From Candidatus Rokuibacteriota bacterium (lineage in GTDB: Bacteria; Methylomirabilota; Methylomirabilia; Rokubacteriales; CSP1-6): a stretch of DNA of 64,000 bases. The stretch is taken from assembly GCA_003221515.1 (NCBI GenBank), contig QHSI01000129.1, positions 6,646-70,645 on the forward strand. The letters are read 5' to 3'. The translations under genes were made by a program, and so were the position numbers. The notes beneath the pieces are model-generated. The model did no database searches, was not told the DNA's origin, and saw only the letters and a program-made list of their open reading frames with translations. Below, piece by piece: positions 4,542 through 37,612 of the stretch (position 1 is its first letter; every line of letters begins with the position of its first letter).

Positions 4542-7500
4542 CTAGCGGTTCATGACCTCCGCCACCATTCGCGTCAGCGCGTCGGGCGTGAATGGCTTCG
4601 TGAGCAGCACGGTGCGCGGATCGAGCACGCCGTGGTGCACGATCGCGTCGCCCGTATAGCCCGACATGTACAGCACCTTCATCTCGGGCCGCGCCGGCGC
4701 CAGCCGATCGGCGAGGTCGCGCCCGCTCATCTCCGGCATGACGACGTCGGTCAACAGCAGGTGGATCGGCCCCGTGTGCCCGCGCGCGACCTCCAGCGCC
4801 TCGTTCGGGCCGCCGGCCGACAGGACCGAGTAGCCGGCGATCCCGAGGACCTCGGTGGCAAGCGAGCGGAGCTCGCCTTCGTCCTCGACGACGAGCACGG
4901 TACCGGAGGCGCGGACCGGCGGTACGGTCTCGACCGTGGCGCTCCTGTGGACGGGCGCCGAGACGCGCGAGAGATAGATGCTCACCGCGGTGCCGGCGCC
5001 CAGTGCGCTCTCGAGCCGCACGTACCCGTCGTGCTGCTTGACGATGCCGTAGACGGTCGCGAGCCCGAGCCCGGTGCCCTTGCCGACCCCTTTGGTCGTG
5101 AAGAACGGTTCGAAGACGTGGGCCTGGACCTCGGGGCTCATTCCGATCCCGGTGTCGCGCACGCGGAACATCGCGTGCGGTCCAAGGCTCGAGCCCGGAT
5201 GGGCGTCTACGAAGTCGGTGTCGAGCTCGACGTCGGCGGTCTCGATGCTCAGGCGCCCGCCCTGCGGCATCGCGTCGCGCGCGTTCACCGCCAGGTTCAG
5301 GATGATCTGCTCGATCTGCGCGGGGTCGGCCTTGACGCGGCCGAGCGTGGGGTCGAGCACCGTGATCAGCTCGATCGTCTCGCCGATCAGGGGCTTGAGC
5401 ATCTGGGCCATGTTCCCCACCACGTCGTTGAGATCGAGCACGCGCGGCTGGAGCATCTGCTTGCGGCTGAAGGCGAGCAGCTGCTGGGTGAGGGACGCCG
5501 CGCGGTCCGCCGTCTTCTTGACCAGCTCGATGTCGCGCCGCCGCGGGTCGTCGGCGGTGAGGCGGAGCAGGAGCAGCTCGGTCCGGCCGGTGATGACCGT
5601 GAGGAGGTTGTTGAAGTCGTGCGCGATCCCGCCGGCGAGCCGGCCGACCGCTTCCATCTTCTGGGCCTGACGCAGCTGCGCCTCGCTCTGGCGCAGCGCC
5701 TCTTCGGCGCGCTTGCGCTCGGTGATGTCCAGCACCGTCGACTGGATGGCGGGCTCGTTCTCCCAGAGGATTGCCGAGACCTGGATGTCGAACCAGACGA
5801 GCGAGCCGTCTTTCCTCACGGCCTGGGACTCGTACTGCGAAGGCACCGCCTCGCCCCGTAGCCGCGCCGCAAGGTAGCCCTCGAGCCGGGGCAGCTCGGC
5901 GGGCGCCATCCATCGGCGAGAGTCGATGCCGATGAGATCGCTCACGCTCTCGTAGCCCAGCATCCGCGCGAACGTCGAGTTGACGAAGAGCGTGACCCAG
6001 CTCCGGTGGATGTGGATGCCCTGGATGGAGCCTTCCACGAGCGTCCGGTACCGTCGCTCGCTCTCCCGCTCGCGCGCGAACAGCTGGGCGTTCCGGAGGG
6101 CGATGGCGGCCTCGTCGGCCAGGCGCGACAGGACGGCCTCGTCGTGATCGGTGAACGGTCGCGGCGAGCGGTTGGCGACATAGATGAGCCCGATCGCGCG
6201 ATCCGCGCTCTTGATCGGCACCGCCATGGCGGCGACGGTCTCGTTGGCACGGGCGCGGTCGAGATATGCCTTGTCGAAGGACGCGTCGTTCGGATAGTCA
6301 TCGGTCCGGCACGGCCGGCCGGTCAGGAGCGCGCGGCCGCCGAGACCCTTGCCCGGCTCGATGAGGTTGGGTCGCGCGGGCATGTCGCGCGCGCCGACGG
6401 CGTAACGCACGGTGACCGGCTCCTCGTCGTCCTCCCGGAACCCGATCAGCGCCAGGTCGCTGCGCGCGAGCTCCTTCGCCCCGTCGGTGATCCGCCGCAG
6501 CACCGCCTCGACGTCGAGGGAGACGGTGAGCGCACGGGAGACGTCGGCCAGGACCTCCGACTCCCGGCGGCGCCGCTCGCTGTCCTCGAACAGGCGCGCG
6601 TTCTCGAGCGCGAGCGCCGCCTGGGTGGCGAACGCCTGCAGGAGCTCGACCTGTCGCTGGGAGAACGGCCCGACGTCGTCCCGATACGTGACGAGCGCGC
6701 CGAGCACGCGATCACCGACGAGCAACGGCGTGGAGAGCACCGCCCGGTAGCCCTCGGCTTCGACCGCCGCGCGAGTCGTTGGTGCCAGGTCGAAGTCCGG
6801 ATCGTTGAGCAGATCCGCCGACCAGACGGGTCGTCGCTGGGCGATGGCGGCGGGCGTGGTGCCGTCGCGCGGGTGCCGGGGTCGCATGCCCGCGGGGAAT
6901 CCCCGGCTCATGCCGCGGCTGGCCTGGAACCCGAAGGGGCTCCCGGGCTCGCCGGCGTTCAGGAGCGCGACCGCCGAGCGCTGGGTCCCGAGCAGGGCGC
7001 AGGCGCGGTCCACGACGAACGAGAGGATCTCCTGGAGGTCGAGGGACGACGTGATCGCGCTGCCGAGCTCGGCGAGCGCCTCCGCCTCGTGGCGCCGCGC
7101 GGCGCTGTCGGTGAACAGGCGCGCGTTGCCGATCGCGACGGCGGCATGGTCGGCGAGGCCGAGCAAGATGTGCTCGTCGCGATCGGTGAGGATCCGGTCA
7201 TCCCGGTTCGACACCGCCAGGAATCCCTCGACCCCCTCCTCGATCTTGATCGGGACCGCCATGTACGCGCGCATGCCTTCCTCGCGCGCGATCGTCGCGA
7301 ACGTCGGGGAGATCCGGGGATCCTCGAGGTAGCGGTCCGTCCGGAACGGACGGCCGTTGACGAGGACGAGACCGGCGGCGCCCTGCCCCGGCGCGATGCG
7401 CATCGAGCGGTAGCCGTCGTACTCCGCGCCCGGCCAGTGGCGGAACTCGACGCTGTCGGTGCTCGGATCACGCAGCGCGACGAACGACATGTCGCTCTGG

Positions 7501-8219
7501 CACACCCCGCGGGCGCCCTCGGCGATTCGCTGCAGCACCGTCGACAGATCGAGCGACGTGTTGATGGTGCGTACCACCGCCGCCAGTAGCTCGGACTCGC
7601 GTCGGCGCCGCTCGGTCTCTTCGTAGAGCCGGGCGTTTACGATGGCGATGGCGGCCTGGTCCGCCAGGAGCCCGCAGAGATTCCGCTCCTCGGGCGTGAA
7701 GGCGCCGCGCTGGCCGAAGGCCACGATCAGCGCGCCGACCGCGCGCTCCTGATGCAGCAGCGGCTGTGCGATGCACGCGTGGAGGTCGGCTTCCCTCGCC
7801 AGCACCGGGTTGAGCCAGCGGGGATCCCGCTGCACGTCTTCGACGTACTCGGGCCGCCGCGACTGCAGGACGTCCGCGGACAGGCTGCCCTTGCGAGAGA
7901 CCGGCACGATCGTGGCAGGCGCCCGCGTCGCGAGCCTCGCGTCCGCCCAGTAGCTCCCGGCCTCCTTCAGCCGCTCGCCGCCGGCGTCGATCCAGACGTA
8001 CGCCATCTTCGCCTTGAGCAACGTCGAGGCCGCCTCGGCGATGCCGCGGAAGACGGCGTCGCTGTCGGTCGCCGACGTGATGAGGCGCGTCAGCTGGCTG
8101 AGCGTGGTGAGGCGTTCGGCGCGCTCCTCGGCCTGCTGGATCAGCCGGGTCCGCGGGCTCGGGGTCTTCGACGCCGTGCGCCGGCCCGGCCGCGGCCTGG
8201 ACTTACTCGGCTTGCTCAA
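4542..8219 (-). CDS. Hybrid sensor histidine kinase (4xGAF-PAS-HisKA-HATPase-REC)
   Basis: Four GAF repeats ending in NARL(Y/F), PAS (YESQAVRKDGS), GGIAHDFNNLL, EPFFTTKGVGKGTGLGL, C-terminal LLLTDVVMP receiver; TTG start uncertain. Confidence 0.9.
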   Translation of the reverse strand: MSKPSKSRPRPGRRTASKTPSPRTRLIQQAEERAERLTTLSQLTRLITSATDSDAVFRGIAEAASTLLKAKMAYVWIDAGGERLKEAGSYWADARLATRAPATIVPVSRKGSLSADVLQSRRPEYVEDVQRDPRWLNPVLAREADLHACIAQPLLHQERAVGALIVAFGQRGAFTPEERNLCGLLADQAAIAIVNARLYEETERRRRESELLAAVVRTINTSLDLSTVLQRIAEGARGVCQSDMSFVALRDPSTDSVEFRHWPGAEYDGYRSMRIAPGQGAAGLVLVNGRPFRTDRYLEDPRISPTFATIAREEGMRAYMAVPIKIEEGVEGFLAVSNRDDRILTDRDEHILLGLADHAAVAIGNARLFTDSAARRHEAEALAELGSAITSSLDLQEILSFVVDRACALLGTQRSAVALLNAGEPGSPFGFQASRGMSRGFPAGMRPRHPRDGTTPAAIAQRRPVWSADLLNDPDFDLAPTTRAAVEAEGYRAVLSTPLLVGDRVLGALVTYRDDVGPFSQRQVELLQAFATQAALALENARLFEDSERRRRESEVLADVSRALTVSLDVEAVLRRITDGAKELARSDLALIGFREDDEEPVTVRYAVGARDMPARPNLIEPGKGLGGRALLTGRPCRTDDYPNDASFDKAYLDRARANETVAAMAVPIKSADRAIGLIYVANRSPRPFTDHDEAVLSRLADEAAIALRNAQLFARERESERRYRTLVEGSIQGIHIHRSWVTLFVNSTFARMLGYESVSDLIGIDSRRWMAPAELPRLEGYLAARLRGEAVPSQYESQAVRKDGSLVWFDIQVSAILWENEPAIQSTVLDITERKRAEEALRQSEAQLRQAQKMEAVGRLAGGIAHDFNNLLTVITGRTELLLLRLTADDPRRRDIELVKKTADRAASLTQQLLAFSRKQMLQPRVLDLNDVVGNMAQMLKPLIGETIELITVLDPTLGRVKADPAQIEQIILNLAVNARDAMPQGGRLSIETADVELDTDFVDAHPGSSLGPHAMFRVRDTGIGMSPEVQAHVFEPFFTTKGVGKGTGLGLATVYGIVKQHDGYVRLESALGAGTAVSIYLSRVSAPVHRSATVETVPPVRASGTVLVVEDEGELRSLATEVLGIAGYSVLSAGGPNEALEVARGHTGPIHLLLTDVVMPEMSGRDLADRLAPARPEMKVLYMSGYTGDAIVHHGVLDPRTVLLTKPFTPDALTRMVAEVMNR

Positions 8220-15768: not shown

Positions 15769-16185
15769 ATGGTGAGCATCGCGGTCTGTCCGCTGGCGCC
15801 CTCGGTGAGCGCGCGGCAGGCGCGCGTCGGCGTCGTGACGAACGTCGAAGGCATGGCGCCGGTCGCGCGCGTCGCGCTCCCGCAACCGCAGCCGCTCCGG
15901 TTCAAGGACGACGTGTTCCTCAAGGATCGGATCACGAGCTCAGCATCGTCAATGGGTTTGATTGAGCACCCTCCAAAGGCTTGGGAGGTGGCACTTCGGT
16001 CGACACATCGCTCATTCATCAGCTCCGCCCCTGGCACGCTCAACGCCTGCGCGATGCGTTGGAGGATGGGCAGGACGCGCCACACTTTACTAGCCGCCGT
16101 CAGCCGCATGGGCACCTGGTGGAGGATGGCTGGCGGGAGCCTAGCCGAAGGCCACGATGCGCACCGGCGCCCCGGCCGGGACTGA
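15769..16185 (+). pseudogene. Possible truncated FecR-domain secreted protein remnant
   Basis: ARVGVVTNVEG...VALPQPQPLRFKDDVFLKDRIT recalls FecR-domain N-termini; coding-like codon bias is lost after about 15940. Confidence 0.35.
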
Positions 16186-16228
16186 ACCGGAGCGCGGGAT
16201 ACCTAGCTGGTGACGCGGCCTTCGCTTC

Positions 16229-16304
16229 CGGCTATGCTAATAGCCGTCCCTGAACCCCTGGCTTTGCGGTCAGCGAAAGCCTGAACAACACTGTCTTGTT
16301 TTTT
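16229..16304 (+). promoter_or_regulatory. Structured leader with terminator-like end upstream of the Clp-N/KOW gene
   Basis: Hairpins CGGCTAT-GCTA-ATAGCCG (16229-16246) and GGCTTT...AAAGCC (16260-16281), then AACAA/TTGTT with a T6 tract (16299-16304). Confidence 0.4.
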
Positions 16305-16325
16305 CCCCCTGCTCGGAGGTGCGAA

Positions 16326-16940
16326 ATGGTTGACCGGTTTGCCGAAGGAGCGCGACGGAGCATCGCTTCGGCAACGATCGAGGCGAGGCGGCACGGTGTT
16401 GTGCGGAGCGACCACTTGCTCTTTGTCGTGGTTCGTGACGGTGCAGGGTTTAGCGCTCGAATCTTGCGGCTCATGGGCGTCGATTTGGCGAGTTTGGCGA
16501 GCCAGATTCAGCAGGACTGGACTGCTTCACCGGATGTTGCTGTCGCGGGCGAGATGGCGTTTTCCCCGGATATGAAACAGGCTCTCGCTATGTCGCTAGA
16601 GGCCGCCACAGAATTGGGGCATAGGCACGTCAGAATCGAGCATCTTCTGCTCGGCATCGTGAAGACCGGAGAGTCGAGGGCCGCAGAACTTCTCCGGCAT
16701 TTCGGCGTCTCGGCTGATAGCCTTCGTGAGGCGATTACTGAACAGAGCGTGGGCGGGGCCAAACAGTTCCAGGGCGGAGATCGTGTCCGCATCCTCGAAG
16801 GACCATTCAAGAACTTTCCCGGCGTTGTGGAACAGTTCGTCGCCGAAGAGGGGCGAGTGCGCGTCGCCGTACCGGTCTTTGGACGTGTCACGCCGGTTGA
16901 CCTTCGCTGGTACGAAGTGGAGCATACCCAGGCGTCGTAG
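16326..16940 (+). CDS. Clp N-terminal (double Clp-repeat) domain fused to a NusG C-terminal KOW domain
   Basis: GGAGGT RBS; DRFAEGARRSI, SDHLLF, FSPDMKQAL, IEHLLLGI, then FQGGDRVRILEGPFKNFPGVVE...VFGRVTPVDL. Confidence 0.85.
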   Translation: MVDRFAEGARRSIASATIEARRHGVVRSDHLLFVVVRDGAGFSARILRLMGVDLASLASQIQQDWTASPDVAVAGEMAFSPDMKQALAMSLEAATELGHRHVRIEHLLLGIVKTGESRAAELLRHFGVSADSLREAITEQSVGGAKQFQGGDRVRILEGPFKNFPGVVEQFVAEEGRVRVAVPVFGRVTPVDLRWYEVEHTQAS

Positions 16941-17118
16941 AGCAGCATGGGGAACTGATTCATGCTGGTTCACGCCGGAGGGAAACGGCGGGCTCCAGGG
17001 GGAAGACGAACGCCCCGGCCAAGGCACCGGGGCGTCGGTGATCTCGCGCGAGAACGACGGGCTACGCGGCCAGGGCCAGCGTACCCTCGAAGTGCACCGT
17101 CAGGTCAGGGGTGGCAAC

Positions 17119-17147
17119 AGGGGCCTTTGTGGCCCTCCGAGGCTCCC
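17119..17147. repeat. GC-rich palindromic REP/terminator-like element
   Basis: GGGCC-TTTGT-GGCCC followed by TCCGAGGCTCCC, just past the stop of the 17155 gene. Confidence 0.35.
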
Positions 17148-17154
17148 ATCTACA

Positions 17155-27862: not shown

Positions 27863-28022
27863 GGCGGCGGTGGCGACCGTGTGCGGGAGGGGTCGACGGG
27901 ACCCGTTCCCTAAGAGCGGCGGCGGACGACGCGCGCCCGGATGGAGCCCAGCCGCCGCGGGGCAGCGAACACGTGCCGCGTGGTAGCCGCGACCCCTCCC
28001 GCATACGGTCGCCACCGCCGCC
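27863..28022. repeat. Intergenic element bounded by 33-bp inverted repeats (MITE/REP-like)
   Basis: 27863-27895 and 27990-28022 are reverse complements with a single G/T mismatch; 94-nt spacer with internal palindromes. Confidence 0.75.
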
Positions 28023-28050
28023 GTCACGTCGCGCAAACGCAACCCGCGCT

Positions 28051-30883: not shown

Positions 30884-32029
30884 TCGGTCAGAATCTTGGC
30901 GCGGTTCACCGCCGCCCACTGGAAGTCGTTCTTGATCATGTGCTGCAGCATGTTGTCGGGGAGGAACTCGATGGGCTTGGACATCTTCGAGATCGCCACG
31001 ACCGCGTAACCCTCGTTGTAGAGCTTCATGGCCTTGTCGCTGACCGACCAGTCGAGCAGCGTCCTGGCGGATTCCAGGTTTTTGGTGCCCTTCACGATCG
31101 CCGTCGCTTCCATGTCCCAGCCCGAGCCCTCCGACGGGAACACGATGTCGATCGGCGCGCCCTGCCGCTTCTGCCGCGCCGCGCGGAACTCGAAGGACAC
31201 TCCGATCGGGTACTCGCCGGCGCCGGCCATCGTGCACGGCTTCGAGCCCGAGTGCGTGTAGACGCCGATGTTCTGGTGGAGCGCGTCCATGTACTTCCAG
31301 CCCTCGGCCTCGCCGAAGAGCTGGAGCCAGCTGGTGACGTCGAGGAAGCCGGTGCCGGACGACGCCGGGTTCGGCATCACGATCGTGCCCTTGTAGACCG
31401 GCTTGATCAGGTCCTTCCACGACGCGGGCTTCGGCAGGTTCTTCTTCTGCGCTTCCACCGTGTTGAAGCAGAGCGCCGCGACCCAGGCGTCCATGCCGAC
31501 CCACGCCGGCGGGTTGTCCTTGTCACGGAACTGGGTGTCGAGGCGCTCGAGCCCCTTCGGCGCGTACGGGACCAGCATGCCGTCGGGCTTCAGCACGAGG
31601 AGGCTCGTCGCGGCCAGGCCCCAGATCACGTCGGCCTGCGGGTTGGCTTTCTCGGCGAGGAGCTTGGCGGTGATGACGCCGGTCGAGTCACGGACCCACT
31701 TGATCTCGATGTCCGGATGGTCCTCGTTGAAGCGGGCCGCGTACTTCTTGAGATCGTCCGCCTCGACGGCCGTGTAGACGTTGAGCGTCGCCTTCGCCGC
31801 GCGGACGGTGGTGGAGGCGAAGCCGATCGCCGCCACGACGATCGCGACGCACACGAGAACGGCGCCGAGCCGGACGAGTGTCCCGTGAGCCATGAGGCCC
31901 TCCCTATCTACGCGCGCCTCGGTCGGCGGGACCCCAGCCCCGCGACGACCTGCGGCGCGCCCGACCATCGCGAGGTGGACGTGATTCTAGCCCAGACGCC
32001 CGCGCGTTGTCAGGGTCGCCGCCGAACCG

Positions 32030-34546: not shown

Positions 34547-34619
34547 CGCCCGTAGTGTGCGCCGCAGGCCGTCGCGGGGCTGGGGCCCCGCCGGCGAGGC
34601 GCGGATACCAACGGAGGTC

Positions 34620-35327
34620 ATGAGCGTGCTCCGCCCCGGATTCATCTGGGCTCTGCTCCTCGTCGCCGCGGGCGCGGGCGGCGTCTATCTGGCGGACCGG
34701 CTCGTCCTGGCGCCGGGGCGCGAGCACCAGCGACAGATCGAGGAACGCGACGCGCAGATCCGCACCTTGACGGAGCGCAACCAGGCCCTCGAGGCGGCGG
34801 TGCGCCTGCTCCGGCACACCGAGCGGCGCGCGCGGCTCGTCGTGCTGGACCAGGCGCGCGGCCCCGACGGTCACGTGCGGACCCGCGTCCGGTTCACCGA
34901 GCTCGACTCCCAGGGCGACATCGTCGGCGAGCCGCGCGAGCTCACGCTCGAGGGCGACGAGGTGTACGTCGACGCGCTCGTGATCAAGTTCGAAGACAAC
35001 TTCGTGACCGCCGGCGACGCGCTCAAGGGCAAGGCGCTGCTCCTCTTCCGGCGAGTCTTCACCGATCGCCGCCGGCCCGCGGAAGGCGACGTGCTGGACC
35101 GGGAGGGGCAGATCCCGCAGAGCTACGCGGCCGAGCGGGCGCCAACCGCGTTCGAGCGCGAGCTCTGGGCGCGCTTCTGGGAGCTGGCCAACGATCCCGA
35201 CGAGGCTCGGCGGCGCGGCGTGCGGGCCCTGCACGGCGAGGCGGTCTCGACCCGGCTGCGCAAGGACCGTACCTACACGATCACGCTGCGCTCGACGGGC
35301 GAGCTGACGATCCTGCCGACTCAGTAA
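34620..35327 (+). CDS. Membrane-anchored hypothetical protein (TM, coiled coil, beta-rich domain)
   Basis: GGAGG RBS; EGDEVYVDALVIKF, LLFRRVF, WARFWELANDP; strong GC3 bias. Confidence 0.75.
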   Translation: MSVLRPGFIWALLLVAAGAGGVYLADRLVLAPGREHQRQIEERDAQIRTLTERNQALEAAVRLLRHTERRARLVVLDQARGPDGHVRTRVRFTELDSQGDIVGEPRELTLEGDEVYVDALVIKFEDNFVTAGDALKGKALLLFRRVFTDRRRPAEGDVLDREGQIPQSYAAERAPTAFERELWARFWELANDPDEARRRGVRALHGEAVSTRLRKDRTYTITLRSTGELTILPTQ

Positions 35328-35381
35328 CCCCCTTCCGGCCGCCTGGTCCTCCAGAATCCACCGCCGCTCTCTATAGGTATT

Positions 35382-35416
35382 TTCCGGATTTTCGAGATCG
35401 CCGACGTCGGGTAACG
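35382..35416 (+). promoter_or_regulatory. Repeated promoter-like motif, copy 1
   Basis: TTCCGGA-N20-GGGTAACG upstream of 35519. Confidence 0.55.
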
Positions 35417-35518
35417 TGGCGGTGGCCCAGGTGGGCCCGCTTCGGCGCAGAACGCGCCGGCATCGCCGCCCAGGCGTCGGTCGAGGGCGTAGCGACAACA
35501 ATTTCCGCGAGGGCCAGC

Positions 35519-35746
35519 GTGGCGCATTTCTATCTCATCGTGTCGCAGCAGGAGCCCAACCGGTATCCGTACTTCAAGCACGTGTACGCCAACGAGACCA
35601 TGGAAGTGATCCTCGACCGCCGCCTCGCGGAACGGCGCGAGAGGCAGGCGCGGCCCGCGAGCGAGCGGCGCCGCACGGACCGGCGCAGTCGGAACGTCTC
35701 GGACGCTCTCAAGCAGTACGGGTGGGTCCTCGCGCGGGGCAGGTGA
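35519..35746 (+). CDS. Small Arg-rich protein (EVILDRR...ERRRxDRR), paralog 1
   Basis: 75 aa; same motif and spacing as 36525..36815. Confidence 0.7.
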   Translation: MAHFYLIVSQQEPNRYPYFKHVYANETMEVILDRRLAERRERQARPASERRRTDRRSRNVSDALKQYGWVLARGR

Positions 35747-35804
35747 TCGGCTCCTCGTCGAGGCGGCTCGCCCCTATGGACCCTCAGTGATTCTCCATTT
35801 TCAA

Positions 35805-35839
35805 TTCCGGAAAACCGCGGATTGCCACACTGGGTTACG
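35805..35839 (+). promoter_or_regulatory. Repeated promoter-like motif, copy 2
   Basis: TTCCGGA-N20-GGGTTACG upstream of 35860. Confidence 0.55.
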
Positions 35840-35859
35840 GCCTGCTTTGCTGCGTCGCG

Positions 35860-36528
35860 ATGGCGGCCGTCGGTGGAGGTGTCGAAGGGCTCCGGGTTCT
35901 CGTCGTGGAGCCCAAGGACTTGCTCGCGGCCCGCCTGAAGGACCAGCTGGAGAGCCTGGGCCACCGAGTGCTGGCGCTGGCCAAGGATGGGCGGGAGGCG
36001 GTCGCGGCCGCCCACCGGTTGCGTCCGAACCTCATCCTGATGGAGACCGCGCTCGCCGGCATCGACGGCATCGACGCGGCGCGGGCGATCGTCAACGACG
36101 AGCCGGTTCCCATCATCCTCCTCATCGGTTATGCCGGCGCCGAGCTCGTCCGCCGGGCGAGGGAGGCGGGAGTCGTCGCGTACCTGACGTCCGTGGACCG
36201 GCGACGGCTCACCTCGACCATCGAAGTCGCGCTGGAGCGCTTCCGAGAGTACCAGCTGGTTCGGACGGAAGGGAGTGACCCGATCAAGGTGCTCGCGGCA
36301 CGAAGGGCCGTCGACCGTGCGACGATGGTGCTGACCACGCGGCTCCCTCTCTCCGAGGCCGAGGCCTTCCAGCACCTCCTCGACTGCAAGAAGAGCACGC
36401 GTCGAACCCTTCGCGAAACCGCATCGGCGGTCGTCGGGGCGGACTGGGTTCTCGGGCGGCCCGAGTTCGGCCCCGCCCTCCAGATGATTCTGTACACCAT
36501 TCGCCGGGGTCTGCGGCCCCCGCAATGA
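35860..36528 (+). CDS. REC-ANTAR (AmiR/NasT-like) regulator with degenerate receiver
   Basis: Receiver fold RVLVVEP...AKDGREAV...LILMET; ANTAR-like ARRAVDRATMVL...LSEAEAFQHL...LRETASAV. Confidence 0.75.
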   Translation: MAAVGGGVEGLRVLVVEPKDLLAARLKDQLESLGHRVLALAKDGREAVAAAHRLRPNLILMETALAGIDGIDAARAIVNDEPVPIILLIGYAGAELVRRAREAGVVAYLTSVDRRRLTSTIEVALERFREYQLVRTEGSDPIKVLAARRAVDRATMVLTTRLPLSEAEAFQHLLDCKKSTRRTLRETASAVVGADWVLGRPEFGPALQMILYTIRRGLRPPQ

Positions 36529-36815
36529 CGGAGTCGGCGCCGGGATTCCTCCTCCACGTCGTCCGAGTCGCCGATCGGCTGCACCACAATCCTGGCCGGA
36601 TGTTGCTCATCGTCCGCGGGCCGTACGCCCATCTCGAGGATCGATTGCGCCGACTGTTCGAAGGGCGTCAAGACGTCGTCGAGGTCATCCTCGATCGGCG
36701 CCGCGGTCAGCGACGTGCGCGCAGCCAGGCCGACCAGCCCGAGCGGCGGCGAGCCGACCGGCGCACGCCGAAGGAGGACATCCTGGAAATCGTCCTCGAA
36801 GGCAGCGGCGACTGA
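36525..36815 (+). CDS. Small Arg-rich protein (EVILDRR...ERRRxDRR), paralog 2
   Basis: ATGA overlap with the ANTAR gene; VEVILDRRRGQRR...ERRRADRR. Confidence 0.7.
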   Translation: MTESAPGFLLHVVRVADRLHHNPGRMLLIVRGPYAHLEDRLRRLFEGRQDVVEVILDRRRGQRRARSQADQPERRRADRRTPKEDILEIVLEGSGD

Positions 36816-36821
36816 TACCGA

Positions 36822-36854
36822 TTCCGGGAAACTCTGACGTGCTTGTACGGGATT
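36822..36854 (+). promoter_or_regulatory. Repeated promoter-like motif, copy 3 (EPS operon)
   Basis: TTCCGGG-N20-GGGATT, followed by the palindrome TCTCAATTGAGA (36856-36867). Confidence 0.5.
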
Positions 36855-36879
36855 GTCTCAATTGAGAGTCAGGTCGGCC

Positions 36880-36891
36880 CGCCGTAGCGTG
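36880..36891 (+). promoter_or_regulatory. ops/JUMPstart-like element
   Basis: CGCCGTAGCGTG is 10/12 identical to the E. coli ops GGCGGTAGCGTG and lies in the leader of a NusG-paralog-led polysaccharide operon. Confidence 0.4.
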
Positions 36892-37042
36892 TACGTATAG
36901 TCGCTCACGACGTAGCCGGGTTGTTCGCACACAGGAATAAATGAATAAATGAGCGATCGGTCTCGAGGGTGTGCTCGCCGATCGTGGAGCCTGGTTCAGC
37001 CCCGACGGGGCGGCAGAAACCAAAGGGGGCGAAGCCTATTCC

Positions 37043-37612
37043 ATGAACGCGTCGACAATCGAGTTGAACGCTTCCGCGGCGACGGTGACCGCGACCCTGG
37101 CGCTGTCGCCGACACCCGCGTGGCACGCCCTGTGGACGCGCAGCCATTGCGAGCAAATGGTCGTGGACCAGCTGGCGGCGAAGGGATTCGAGCTGTTTCT
37201 GCCGAGGGTCGGCCGTTGGGCACGGCACGGTGATGTCAGGCGCCGCATCGTGGTTCCGATGTTCCCGGGGTACGTCTTCCTGCACGGGAGGGTCGACAAG
37301 GTGGCGTATCTCGAAATCGTCAAGACGCGCGGGCTGGCGCAGATTCTCGGCGAGCGCTGGGACCGGCTGGCGACGATCGATGTCAGGGAGATTGAGGCGC
37401 TCCGGAGGATCGTCGCCGTCAAGGCGCCGGCCCTACCGTACGCCTACTTGCGGGCAGGCCAGCGCATCCGGATCACGCGGGGCCCGCTGGCCGAGCTCGA
37501 GGGCATTCTCGTCCGCGCCAAGGAGAATCGGGGTCTGCTAGTGGTGGCCGTCGAGCTCCTTCGGTGCGGTGTCGCAGTGCAAGTGGACTGCACGTCGGTG
37601 ACGCCTCTCTGA
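37043..37612 (+). CDS. NusG paralog / transcription antiterminator (UpxY/LoaP/RfaH-like)
   Basis: WHALWTRSHCE, FLP...VPMFPGYVF (NGN); GQRIRITRGPLAELEG (KOW); first gene of the EPS operon. Confidence 0.85.
   Translation: MNASTIELNASAATVTATLALSPTPAWHALWTRSHCEQMVVDQLAAKGFELFLPRVGRWARHGDVRRRIVVPMFPGYVFLHGRVDKVAYLEIVKTRGLAQILGERWDRLATIDVREIEALRRIVAVKAPALPYAYLRAGQRIRITRGPLAELEGILVRAKENRGLLVVAVELLRCGVAVQVDCTSVTPL

Follow-up and report, generated by a model that had tools for sequence, protein, structure and literature searches.

We analysed a 64,000-nucleotide (nt) stretch of DNA from a Candidatus Rokuibacteriota bacterium, hereafter the window, in which three copies of the two-part motif TTCCGGR-N20-GGGW precede three successive transcription units. 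Our preferred reading, to which we give a probability of roughly 0.58, is that the three copies mark promoter/operator regions of three units of a conserved Rokubacterial regulatory cassette and do not constitute one bipartite sigma-factor signature. Copies 1 and 2 would be sigma70-family-type promoters of common layout, their TTCCGGA coming from two different elements (box X for copy 1, box Y for copy 2), and the GGGT of copy 2 would be promoter spacer. Copy 3 would represent sites 2 and 3 of a three-palindrome array (GGGR-N1-3-YCCC, 23 base pairs (bp) apart) ahead of the leader of an exopolysaccharide (EPS) operon that begins with a NusG paralogue. In the window's lineage, site 1 would have been lost and the right halves of sites 2 and 3 would have decayed, paralleling the absence of GerE-type regulator genes from the locus.

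A sequence-only reading of the window had described three fixed-spacing copies ahead of three successive units, each upstream of a gene start (35519, 35860 and 37043), and both observations were borne out. The window (G+C content 69%) contains exactly three matches to TTCCGGR-N20-GGGW (35382-35412, 35805-35835 and 36822-36852), all on the plus strand and identically spaced, against 0.15 expected from dinucleotide shuffles. They lie in consecutive, short intergenic regions of 191, 113 and 227 nt, and the genes behind them are real and conserved: small open reading frame 1 (small ORF1) behind copy 1, a response regulator with an ANTAR RNA-binding output domain (RR-ANTAR) behind copy 2, and the NusG paralogue behind copy 3. 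Allowing one mismatch gave 10 matches, with 5.25 expected; the extra ones were genic and at chance level, and none lay upstream of a gene. The pattern had been defined post hoc, so we ran look-elsewhere tests on two-part 6+3 patterns. Patterns with three clustered copies numbered 2195 in the whole window and about 1126 in shuffles, and patterns occurring in three consecutive intergenic regions of non-coding DNA numbered 33, compared with 29.6 in shuffles. For the three short regions alone, the probability of any 6+3 pattern with a gap of 10-29 common to all three was 0.0065. Because the pattern was picked after looking, its significance is weaker than "3 versus 0.15" implies; the three-copy coincidence is noteworthy and suggestive, and statistics alone cannot settle it.

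We therefore compare the regions across about 60 Rokubacterial loci, obtained from genome-representative and metagenome scans with the RR-ANTAR protein and from homologue look-ups with the NusG paralogue, and cited below by L numbers. A 90% NusG relative, P0003, could not be placed on a contig. The genes are linked in function, and their synteny extends across the phylum. Usually a pair of NarL/GerE-type response regulators comes first, followed by RR-ANTAR, a small ORF, the NusG paralogue and EPS export genes; the tandem NarL/GerE-type genes lie upstream of RR-ANTAR in most Rokubacterial lineages (L001, L002, L090 1-1068, L094 1-865). In the window's lineage the GerE-type pair is missing from the locus, a protein of 235 amino acids (aa; 34620-35327) and small ORF1 standing in its stead, and no GerE-type gene is encoded in the window.

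Copy 2 (TTCCGGA-N20-GGGTTACG, an exact match at 35805-35839, plus strand) lies upstream of RR-ANTAR. We aligned the 100 nt upstream of this gene in 31 distinct sequences and computed column statistics from 24 diverged orthologues (57-67% protein identity), whose consensus reads cagTgATTc.Cc.tt-TcGaT.T..GGgAaAcatCGGATTGTCaC.CCg.Gccgc.GCGcG.TcTACT, followed by 8 nt and ATG. The conserved blocks are GTGATTCTCC, GGgAaAC, CGGATTGTCaC and TcTACT. On the plus strand of the window they correspond to block A (GTGATTCTCC, 35787-35796), box Y (GGAAAAC, 35809-35815, the left part of copy 2), box X (35818-35827, made up of CGGA at 35818-21 and the -35-like TTGCCA at 35822-27) and, 18 nt past the -35, the -10-like hexamer TTTGCT (35846-35851; TCTACT or TTTACT in orthologues). 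Conservation was highest in box X (orthologue consensus CGGATTGTCA; mean identity to the window 0.82, 1.62 bits), followed by the TCTACT block (0.64, 1.48 bits) and the core of box Y (1.31 bits); block A had a mean identity of 0.79. TTCCGGA itself reached 0.58 and 1.07 bits, and GGGTTACG was lowest at 0.36 and 0.90 bits. The exact two-part pattern was kept in 0/24 diverged orthologues and TTCCGG in 4/24; CGGATTGnnn-N16-19-TnnnCT fits 19/24. The GGGT of copy 2 (35832-35) falls within the variable promoter spacer. A SigB/SigF-type -10 element is thus not supported here, the GGGT columns being the least conserved of copy 2 (0.90 bits) and GGG being conserved in copy 3 only. The -10-like hexamer stands 8 nt before the ATG without a Shine-Dalgarno sequence, so the RR-ANTAR mRNA would be near-leaderless; the region carries the signature of a sigma70-family-type promoter giving a (near-)leaderless mRNA.

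Copy 1 (TTCCGGA-N20-GGGTAACG, an exact match at 35382-35416, plus strand) shows a similar arrangement around different letters. Its box X (35385-35394, plus strand) consists of CGGA (35385-88) and the -35-like TTTTCG (35389-94), with the -10-like hexamer TAACGT (35412-35417, plus strand) 17 nt further on. With a colon marking the point where CGGA abuts the -35, this box X aligns with CGGA:TTGTCA of RR-ANTAR promoters and CGGA:TTTGCG of GerE-regulator promoters. In relatives 94-96% identical, GGGTAACG becomes TCGTAAGG, GCGTAGGG or GCGTAGAG, with GGG changed to TCG or GCG; these close relatives keep TTCCGGATTTTCGAGATCGCCGACGTC and TAnnGT (TAAGGT, TAGGGT, TAGAGT). The suggestion that GGGTAACG holds the -10 was therefore right in position, as it overlaps the likely -10 TAACGT, and wrong in content, the informative bases being TA..GT and not GGG. 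On this comparison the GGG of copy 1, immediately 5' of the predicted -10, is not under constraint. The copy 1 region aligned with the L042-type RR-ANTAR upstream region at a score of 27, which 0 of 500 shuffles reached; in that register CCGGATTTTC of copy 1 is box X and TAGGTATTT is box Y. The register implied by the two-part motif, aligning copy 1 with copy 2 at TTCCGGA, scored 18 (p = 0.2). The TTCCGGA words of copies 1 and 2 thus occupy non-homologous positions, offset by 10 nt in the common layout.

That layout runs from block A through CGAT, 13 nt containing box Y (GGnAAAC or TTCCGGAA), and box X, in which CGGA immediately abuts the -35 hexamer, to a -10 hexamer 16-18 nt downstream. Three promoter classes share it: the RR-ANTAR class (CGGA:TTGTCA-N17-18-TCTACT, 8 nt before the ATG), the GerE-regulator class (CGGA:TTTGCG-N16-18-TAGACT, 7-8 nt before the ATG) and the ORF1 class (CGGA:TTTTCG-N17-TA(A/G)nGT). 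The window's versions are CGGA:TTTTCG-N17-TAACGT in copy 1 and CGGA:TTGCCA-N18-TTTGCT in copy 2. About 11 distinct sequences upstream of the second GerE-type gene gave the consensus CGGTCAGGGATTTyCCGG..CGATTTGCGGaGCTTyCCGGATTTgcg...GTAGCCACTAGACTGcC...ATG, and block A of RR-ANTAR resembles GGGATTTCCC at -72 of these promoters. In the L094 GerE-regulator promoter, box Y is TTCCGGAAGTTCC and box X is CCGGATTTTG; because these boxes carry them, the words of the two-part motif also appear in other lineages, where they are variants of boxes Y and X. All three classes show a pair of conserved hexamers with a variable spacer of 16-18 nt, as expected of a sigma70-family promoter, although the -10 of RR-ANTAR is imperfect, with no A at position 2. 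Intergenic DNA of the window does not generally carry CGGATT and GGATTkT boxes, and the refined boxes have no other copy upstream of genes in the window. Most simply, the boxes that precede the core promoter (A, Y and X) would be regulator-binding sites common to the cassette promoters.

TAGACT or TCTACT, 7-8 nt before the ATG and without a Shine-Dalgarno sequence, was observed at 35846-35862 of the window, at about 205-235 of L094 and at about 410-438 of L090. This suggests that RR-ANTAR and GerE-type regulator mRNAs are leaderless in Rokubacteria. Leaderless-mRNA promoters of Actinobacteria and Deinococcus carry TAnnnT about 6-7 nt upstream of the start codon. The Rokubacterial hexamers resemble them in position and in the missing Shine-Dalgarno sequence; unlike them, TCTACT has no A at its second position.

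Copy 3 (TTCCGGG-N20-GGGATT, an exact match at 36822-36854, plus strand) is the only one in which both boxes are conserved and the fixed spacing claimed for the motif holds across orthologues. In 16/16 orthologues, among them L078 (NusG 84% identical), GGAA and GGG(G/A/T)T(T/C) stand at the window's distances to (A)ATTGAG with no indel. The register was ungapped, anchored at the invariant AATTGAG block (36860-36866, plus strand), which probably lies near the transcription start or belongs to the operator, and was confirmed by L078; MAFFT had inserted a 23-nt gap. In this register the orthologues carry three palindromes in 23-bp steps, GGGAATCCC at -57, CGGGAAcTTCCCG at -34 and GGGGTTCCC (GGGATTCCC in L078) at -11. 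The window's GGGAAAC (36826) falls exactly at -34 and its GGGATT (36849) exactly at -11, defining degenerate candidate operator sites 2 (GGGAAACTCTG, 36826-36836, plus strand; GGGAAcTTCCC in orthologues) and 3 (GGGATTGTCTC, 36849-36859, plus strand). Dyad symmetry as such is not seen in the window, where sites 2 and 3 keep only their left halves (GGGAAACTCTG, GGGATTGTCTC). The stop codon of small ORF2 lies 7 nt from TTCC, which leaves the window without site 1. Copies 2 and 3 share a homologous box Y (CGAT/CAAT-TCC-GG(G/A)AAAC).

The palindrome is concentrated in these regions, GGGR-N1-3-YCCC occurring 13.2 times per kilobase (kb) compared with 0.40 per kb in 314 kb of Rokubacterial DNA (33-fold), and it recurs at -72 of GerE-regulator promoters. 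A relaxed two-box pattern, G[GT]GAAN-N16-19-GGGNT[TC], gave 33 matches in 269 kb of related DNA, with 5.6 expected, nearly all of them at NusG-operon promoters. Twelve of the 33 were on the opposite strand, and 10 of these read from site 2 to site 1. In L088 a two-box site lies ahead of a glmS-like gene that precedes the NusG gene. A pattern mirrored in this way fits a dyad-symmetric operator array and does not fit a directional sigma signature. These findings suggest that the boxes of copy 3 are two of three phased palindromic operators, whose likely binders would be the NarL/GerE-type regulators encoded next door in most relatives.

The fallback offered by the sequence-only reading, a transcription-factor box plus promoter, comes close to these comparative data and describes them better than a sigma signature does. 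In the mechanism that we propose, a dimeric transcription factor would bind boxes A, Y and X as well as the palindromes, and the adjacent GerE-type regulators are its most plausible identity; in this way they would jointly control their own genes, the ANTAR regulator and the EPS operon. Operator arrays of the NarL/FixJ/GerE family include the DosR box, the RcsB box and the NarL heptamers. The Rokubacterial sites resemble them as short, GC-rich inverted repeats (GGGAAnTTCCC), several of which are phased at about two helical turns before regulator and polysaccharide genes, and in having adjacent regulator genes whose own promoters carry such sites, which suggests autoregulation. They differ in a half-site spacing that varies from 1 to 3 nt and in that the window has no regulator genes and its sites are degenerate. 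To our knowledge, the predicted palindrome sequence matches no published box.

Downstream of copy 3 lies a long (190-400 nt), conserved NusG leader with a further candidate element. The sequence CGCCGTAGCGTG (36880-36891, plus strand) lies 20 nt past AATTGAG and is identical at 10/12 positions to the ops sequence GGCGGTAGCGTG, the recruitment element of RfaH (PMC5995543). The ops-like 12-mer retains C3, G5, T6, A7, G8, T11 and G12 of ops and is conserved at +20 from AATTGAG in orthologous leaders. Relative to the 12-mer GGCGGTAGnnTG, positions G2, C3, G5, T6, A7, G10, T11 and G12 are near-invariant among 11 distinct orthologous 12-mers; C replaces G4, and G8 varies among orthologues. The probability of an ops match of at least 10/12 in a shuffled leader was about 0.02, and the whole window holds 17 such matches. 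The element is a plausible loading site for the NusG paralogue. If it is real, transcription must begin within the copy 3 region, before about 36865, and a transcript from there would cross the ops-like element, a possible loading point for the NusG paralogue that the operon itself encodes. RfaH, LoaP and UpxY systems, which promote readthrough of long polysaccharide or secondary-metabolite operons, likewise have the NusG paralogue first in the operon and a long conserved leader; the present case differs in phylum and in family scores below cut-off.

The last approximately 60 nt of the leader (about 36990-37042) are highly conserved (GGTTCGGCCCCGAaGGGGCGAAtTGAACCAAAGGGGGCGAAGCC). RNAalifold of the 3' leader paired GGCCCC with the ribosome-binding-site GGGGGC, rivalling a local GCCCC/GGGGC hairpin, with covariation near 0 on a ragged alignment; as modelled, this pairing could be a translational switch or an ANTAR target. 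Rfam searches, run permissively on the region and with gathering thresholds on the entire window, returned no family, and a transfer RNA scan of the window was also empty.

Several points weigh against this interpretation. All promoter and operator assignments are inferred from conservation, and the orthologous sequences are phylogenetically related, so the enrichment figures overstate the number of independent observations. A strict sigma70 consensus scan of 35200-37200 gave no promoter, and a terminator consensus scan was likewise empty. Apart from TTGTCA, the -35 hexamers are poor matches to the consensus, and the canonical A at -11 is missing from TCTACT. Copy 3 has no convincingly conserved TAnnnT -10 (TAGTCC/TCGTCC in orthologues, GAGTCA in the window); its sigma70-like option, TTCAGG/TTGTAC and TAGTCC/GAGTCA at 17-18 nt, is poorly conserved. 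Moreover, the left halves of its sites (GGGAA, GGG) are better conserved than the right ones, a pattern also compatible with a directional -35/-10 pair spaced by 18 nt, and a core of -35 GGGAAC, 18 nt and -10 GGGRTT is formally possible. The inner spacing of the palindromes varies from 1 to 3 nt, which is unusual for a single rigid dimer. In the window, degenerate sites without regulator genes may be partly vestigial or bound by something else. Finally, a lineage-specific common function of the exact motif is possible, given p of about 0.007 for the three regions.

Of the other explanations, the one that survives best, although we consider it unlikely, is a lineage-specific box in which half-sites GGRAW and GGGWW, 23 bp apart, are read by a tandem-binding factor encoded elsewhere. 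The 0.0065 probability of a pattern common to the three regions is in its favour, its start-to-start distance of 23 bp is the same as the phase of the ancestral operator array, and GGGTT of copy 2 is retained in relatives at least 93% identical (L020-L024). Within the same lineage, however, the GGG of copy 1 varies (TCG, GCG) and L060 has GAG in copy 2; triple coincidences are also common across non-coding DNA, and no candidate DNA-binding factor, nor any classical DNA-binding regulator, was found among the scanned ORFs of the window.

The sequence-only reading had preferred a single -35/-10 signature of an alternative sigma factor, whether SigB/SigF-like, extracytoplasmic function (ECF)-like or phylum-specific, with TTCCGGR or the inner GGAAA as -35 and GGGW as -10 driving all three units. 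We regard this as improbable. Its geometry is admittedly legal, since the hexamers GGAAAA/GGGAAA and GGGTTA/GGGATT give a sigma70-family spacer of 17-18 nt, and three exact, equally spaced copies stand ahead of three genes (p of about 0.007 for these regions). In copy 3, GGAA and GGGRT(T/C) are fixed in all orthologues while the intervening sequence varies, and with a start near AATTGAG the ops-like element would fall at a sensible +20 to +30 or so. The signature nevertheless breaks down under comparison: GGG is unconstrained in copies 1 and 2, being lost in copy 1 of the 94-96% identical relatives and in copy 2 of 24/24 diverged orthologues, TTCCGGA is non-homologous between these copies, and the copy 3 pattern is mirrored on the opposite strand, with a third site at the same 23-bp phase.

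SigB/SigF-type promoters read GTTTAA-N12-15-GGGTAT, and mycobacterial SigF promoters read GGTTT-N15-17-GGGTA. The window's three copies share with them a GGG(T/A)(A/T) word at the -10 position; unlike them, they have no GTTT-like -35, the upstream element being TTCCGG or GGAAA(A/C), and the distance from that element to GGG is 17-18 nt for the hexamers or 20-21 nt for the motif as first described. ECF promoters combine a GGAAC/GAAAC -35 with a CGT/GTT -10, 16-18 nt apart. GGGAAC and GGAAAC words, plus GTT in copy 3 orthologues, recall these promoters, but by the usual consensus values the distance does not fit, AAC and GTT being 20 nt apart in those orthologues; in RR-ANTAR promoters, GGGAAAC is only 3 nt upstream of box X, and nothing is conserved 16-18 nt after it. 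The search for a cognate sigma gene, which the sequence-only reading had called for, found no SigB/SigF-like or ECF gene among the scanned ORFs of the window, nor any ECF/anti-sigma pair or other sigma, anti-sigma or partner-switching gene (Sigma70_r2/r4, RsbW, STAS). The further idea of a regulon that includes the EPS operon stands insofar as the three successive units belong to one functional cluster; in the DNA available, no further copy precedes other genes.

Comparably improbable, in our view, is a more elaborate scheme of three-layer EPS control, consisting of a NarL-type operator array, the ANTAR regulator with its Arg-rich protein, and NusG/ops, in which the window's promoters have been rewired onto TTCCGGR-N20-GGGW. 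If this were true, such a three-layer cassette would be one not described before, and after the loss of the NarL-type genes the rewired motif would be read by another factor or sigma.

Pure coincidence, meaning unrelated AT-richer promoter regions that happen to carry TTCCGG and GGG at one spacing without common regulation, seems still somewhat less probable. Hundreds of comparable two-part patterns occur in at least three non-coding regions, and the two elements of the motif are the least conserved parts of copy 2. What chance would not provide is the modular layout of boxes A, Y and X, common to these regions and to the GerE-regulator promoters of other lineages, the homology of box Y in copies 2 and 3, and the functional linkage and phylum-wide synteny of the genes. 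That the conserved blocks act at the RNA level within 5' leaders, perhaps as ANTAR-regulator targets, is very unlikely: the cluster does encode an ANTAR regulator, and the long NusG leader is conserved and its Shine-Dalgarno region may pair with the upstream GGCCCC, but no Rfam family was found even permissively, alifold covariation is near 0, the RR-ANTAR and GerE blocks end 7-8 nt before the start codon with the variable spacer between hexamers that marks a promoter, and the complementarity of block A and box X as a hairpin (GTGAnnnTCCG...CGGAnnnTCAC) shows no covariation in L001/L042.

The genes of the cluster are all on the plus strand. Small ORF1 (35519-35746; 75 aa, Arg-rich, G+C content at third codon positions (GC3) 0.89) is a paralogue of small ORF2, with which it shares VILDRR..RR..ERRxxDRR; it has no Pfam or NCBIfam match and is confined to the window's lineage (relatives 88-100% identical). 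The 235-aa protein upstream is restricted to the same lineage and has a transmembrane segment and a coiled coil, with only a weak DivIC-like coiled-coil match. RR-ANTAR (35860-36528; Pfam Response_reg and ANTAR) has about 45 orthologous loci. Small ORF2 (36525-36815; 96 aa, Arg-rich) overlaps the RR-ANTAR stop with its start (ATGA) and adjoins RR-ANTAR in all orthologous loci. It has no Pfam or NCBIfam match even at E up to 5, and its single-sequence AlphaFold model (predicted local distance difference test score, pLDDT, 65) found no fold match in a Foldseek search against PDB (best E 0.25). The model orders the small Arg-rich protein as beta-beta-alpha-beta...beta, and the family pattern is ..RPYAYLE..VEVILDRRRGERR..ERRxxDRR..ILE. 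One member of this family is always translationally coupled to the RR-ANTAR gene through ATGA, and the window's lineage has a second, stand-alone paralogue.

The NusG paralogue (37043-37612; Pfam NusG) is the first gene of the EPS operon. Its NCBIfam E-values are 4e-24 for UpxY, 6e-17 for LoaP and 3e-15 for RfaH, all under the curated cut-offs (bit scores, with cut-offs in parentheses: UpxY 85.3 (100), LoaP 62.2 (125), RfaH 56.5 (144.5) and NusG 31.8 (135.7)). By these scores it is a specialised NusG paralogue, UpxY/LoaP/RfaH-like, of no named subfamily. Public gene calls start it at GTG 36971 (213 aa, P0001); the orthologue alignment favours ATG 37043 (189 aa), which is preceded by the conserved ribosome-binding region AAAGGGGGCGAAGCC. 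The XrtA/PEP-CTERM-type EPS cluster that follows (37564-63968) extends past the window end and contains TIGR03007, TIGR03015, TIGR03018, TIGR03013/03025, TIGR03097 and TIGR03098 families, a flippase, glycosyltransferases and a deacetylase.

Sigma-54-dependent control of XrtA/PEP-CTERM loci by PrsK/PrsR is reported (PMC1569441, PMC9850573). The EPS locus here is of the same class, with XrtA-associated families, and differs from PrsK/PrsR systems in that the window showed neither a fitting sigma-54 -24/-12 element nor a gene resembling PrsR or PrsK. A sigma-54 candidate was considered and rejected, the GG-TTG spacing in GGGGTTCCCTGAATTGAG and in the window's version being, by eye, 1-2 nt off the strict -24/-12 geometry. 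EPS control here seems to lie with GerE-type and ANTAR regulators plus the NusG paralogue.

Comparison with close strains placed a breakpoint inside copy 3. In relatives 95-96% identical, homology to the window ends at the small ORF2 stop codon (36815/36816; L021 2782, L022 3953, L023 3446), and past this point lie a hairpin (GGGCCGGAGctcaaccCTCCGGCCC) and a FAD (flavin adenine dinucleotide)-oxidoreductase-like gene, with no NusG/EPS cluster. L062 (586-615) retains the left half of copy 3 (GATTCCGGAAACTCCCGACCTGCTTTGCC) joined to that hairpin. Close strains thus differ in whether they carry the EPS cluster, of at least 27 kb, and the breakpoint falls inside copy 3. In a search for the right-hand junction of the EPS island, the DNA downstream of small ORF2 in L022/L023 had no counterpart in the window. 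Three segments of 50-140 nt (27888-28025, 31899-31966 and 34552-34603), near transporter genes, are 83-87% identical to DNA downstream of small ORF2 in L022/L023 and may be repeated signal-peptide-coding or intergenic elements.

Elsewhere in the window, a large hybrid sensor kinase (4542-8219, minus strand) with four GAF domains, PAS, HisKA/HATPase and a receiver domain is encoded about 27 kb away from the RR-ANTAR gene; no other histidine kinase was seen. A 1.27-kb segment of lower G+C content (62%; 15886-17154) without a confident gene call includes an ORF (16254-16940, plus strand) with Clp_N repeats and a weak KOW motif.

For genome scanning, these results carry a caution: a motif present in three exact copies at fixed spacing can turn out to be assembled from non-homologous elements, which phylogenetic footprinting can reveal where single-sequence statistics cannot. 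As far as we know, the promoters and regulators of Rokubacteria, an abundant uncultivated soil phylum, are experimentally uncharacterised. The analysis offers a first testable picture of them, with sigma70-like, apparently leaderless promoters for regulator genes and a phased operator array before a large EPS operon. It also points to a NusG paralogue with an ops-like element outside Proteobacteria, and to an EPS cluster that is present or absent among strains 95-96% identical.

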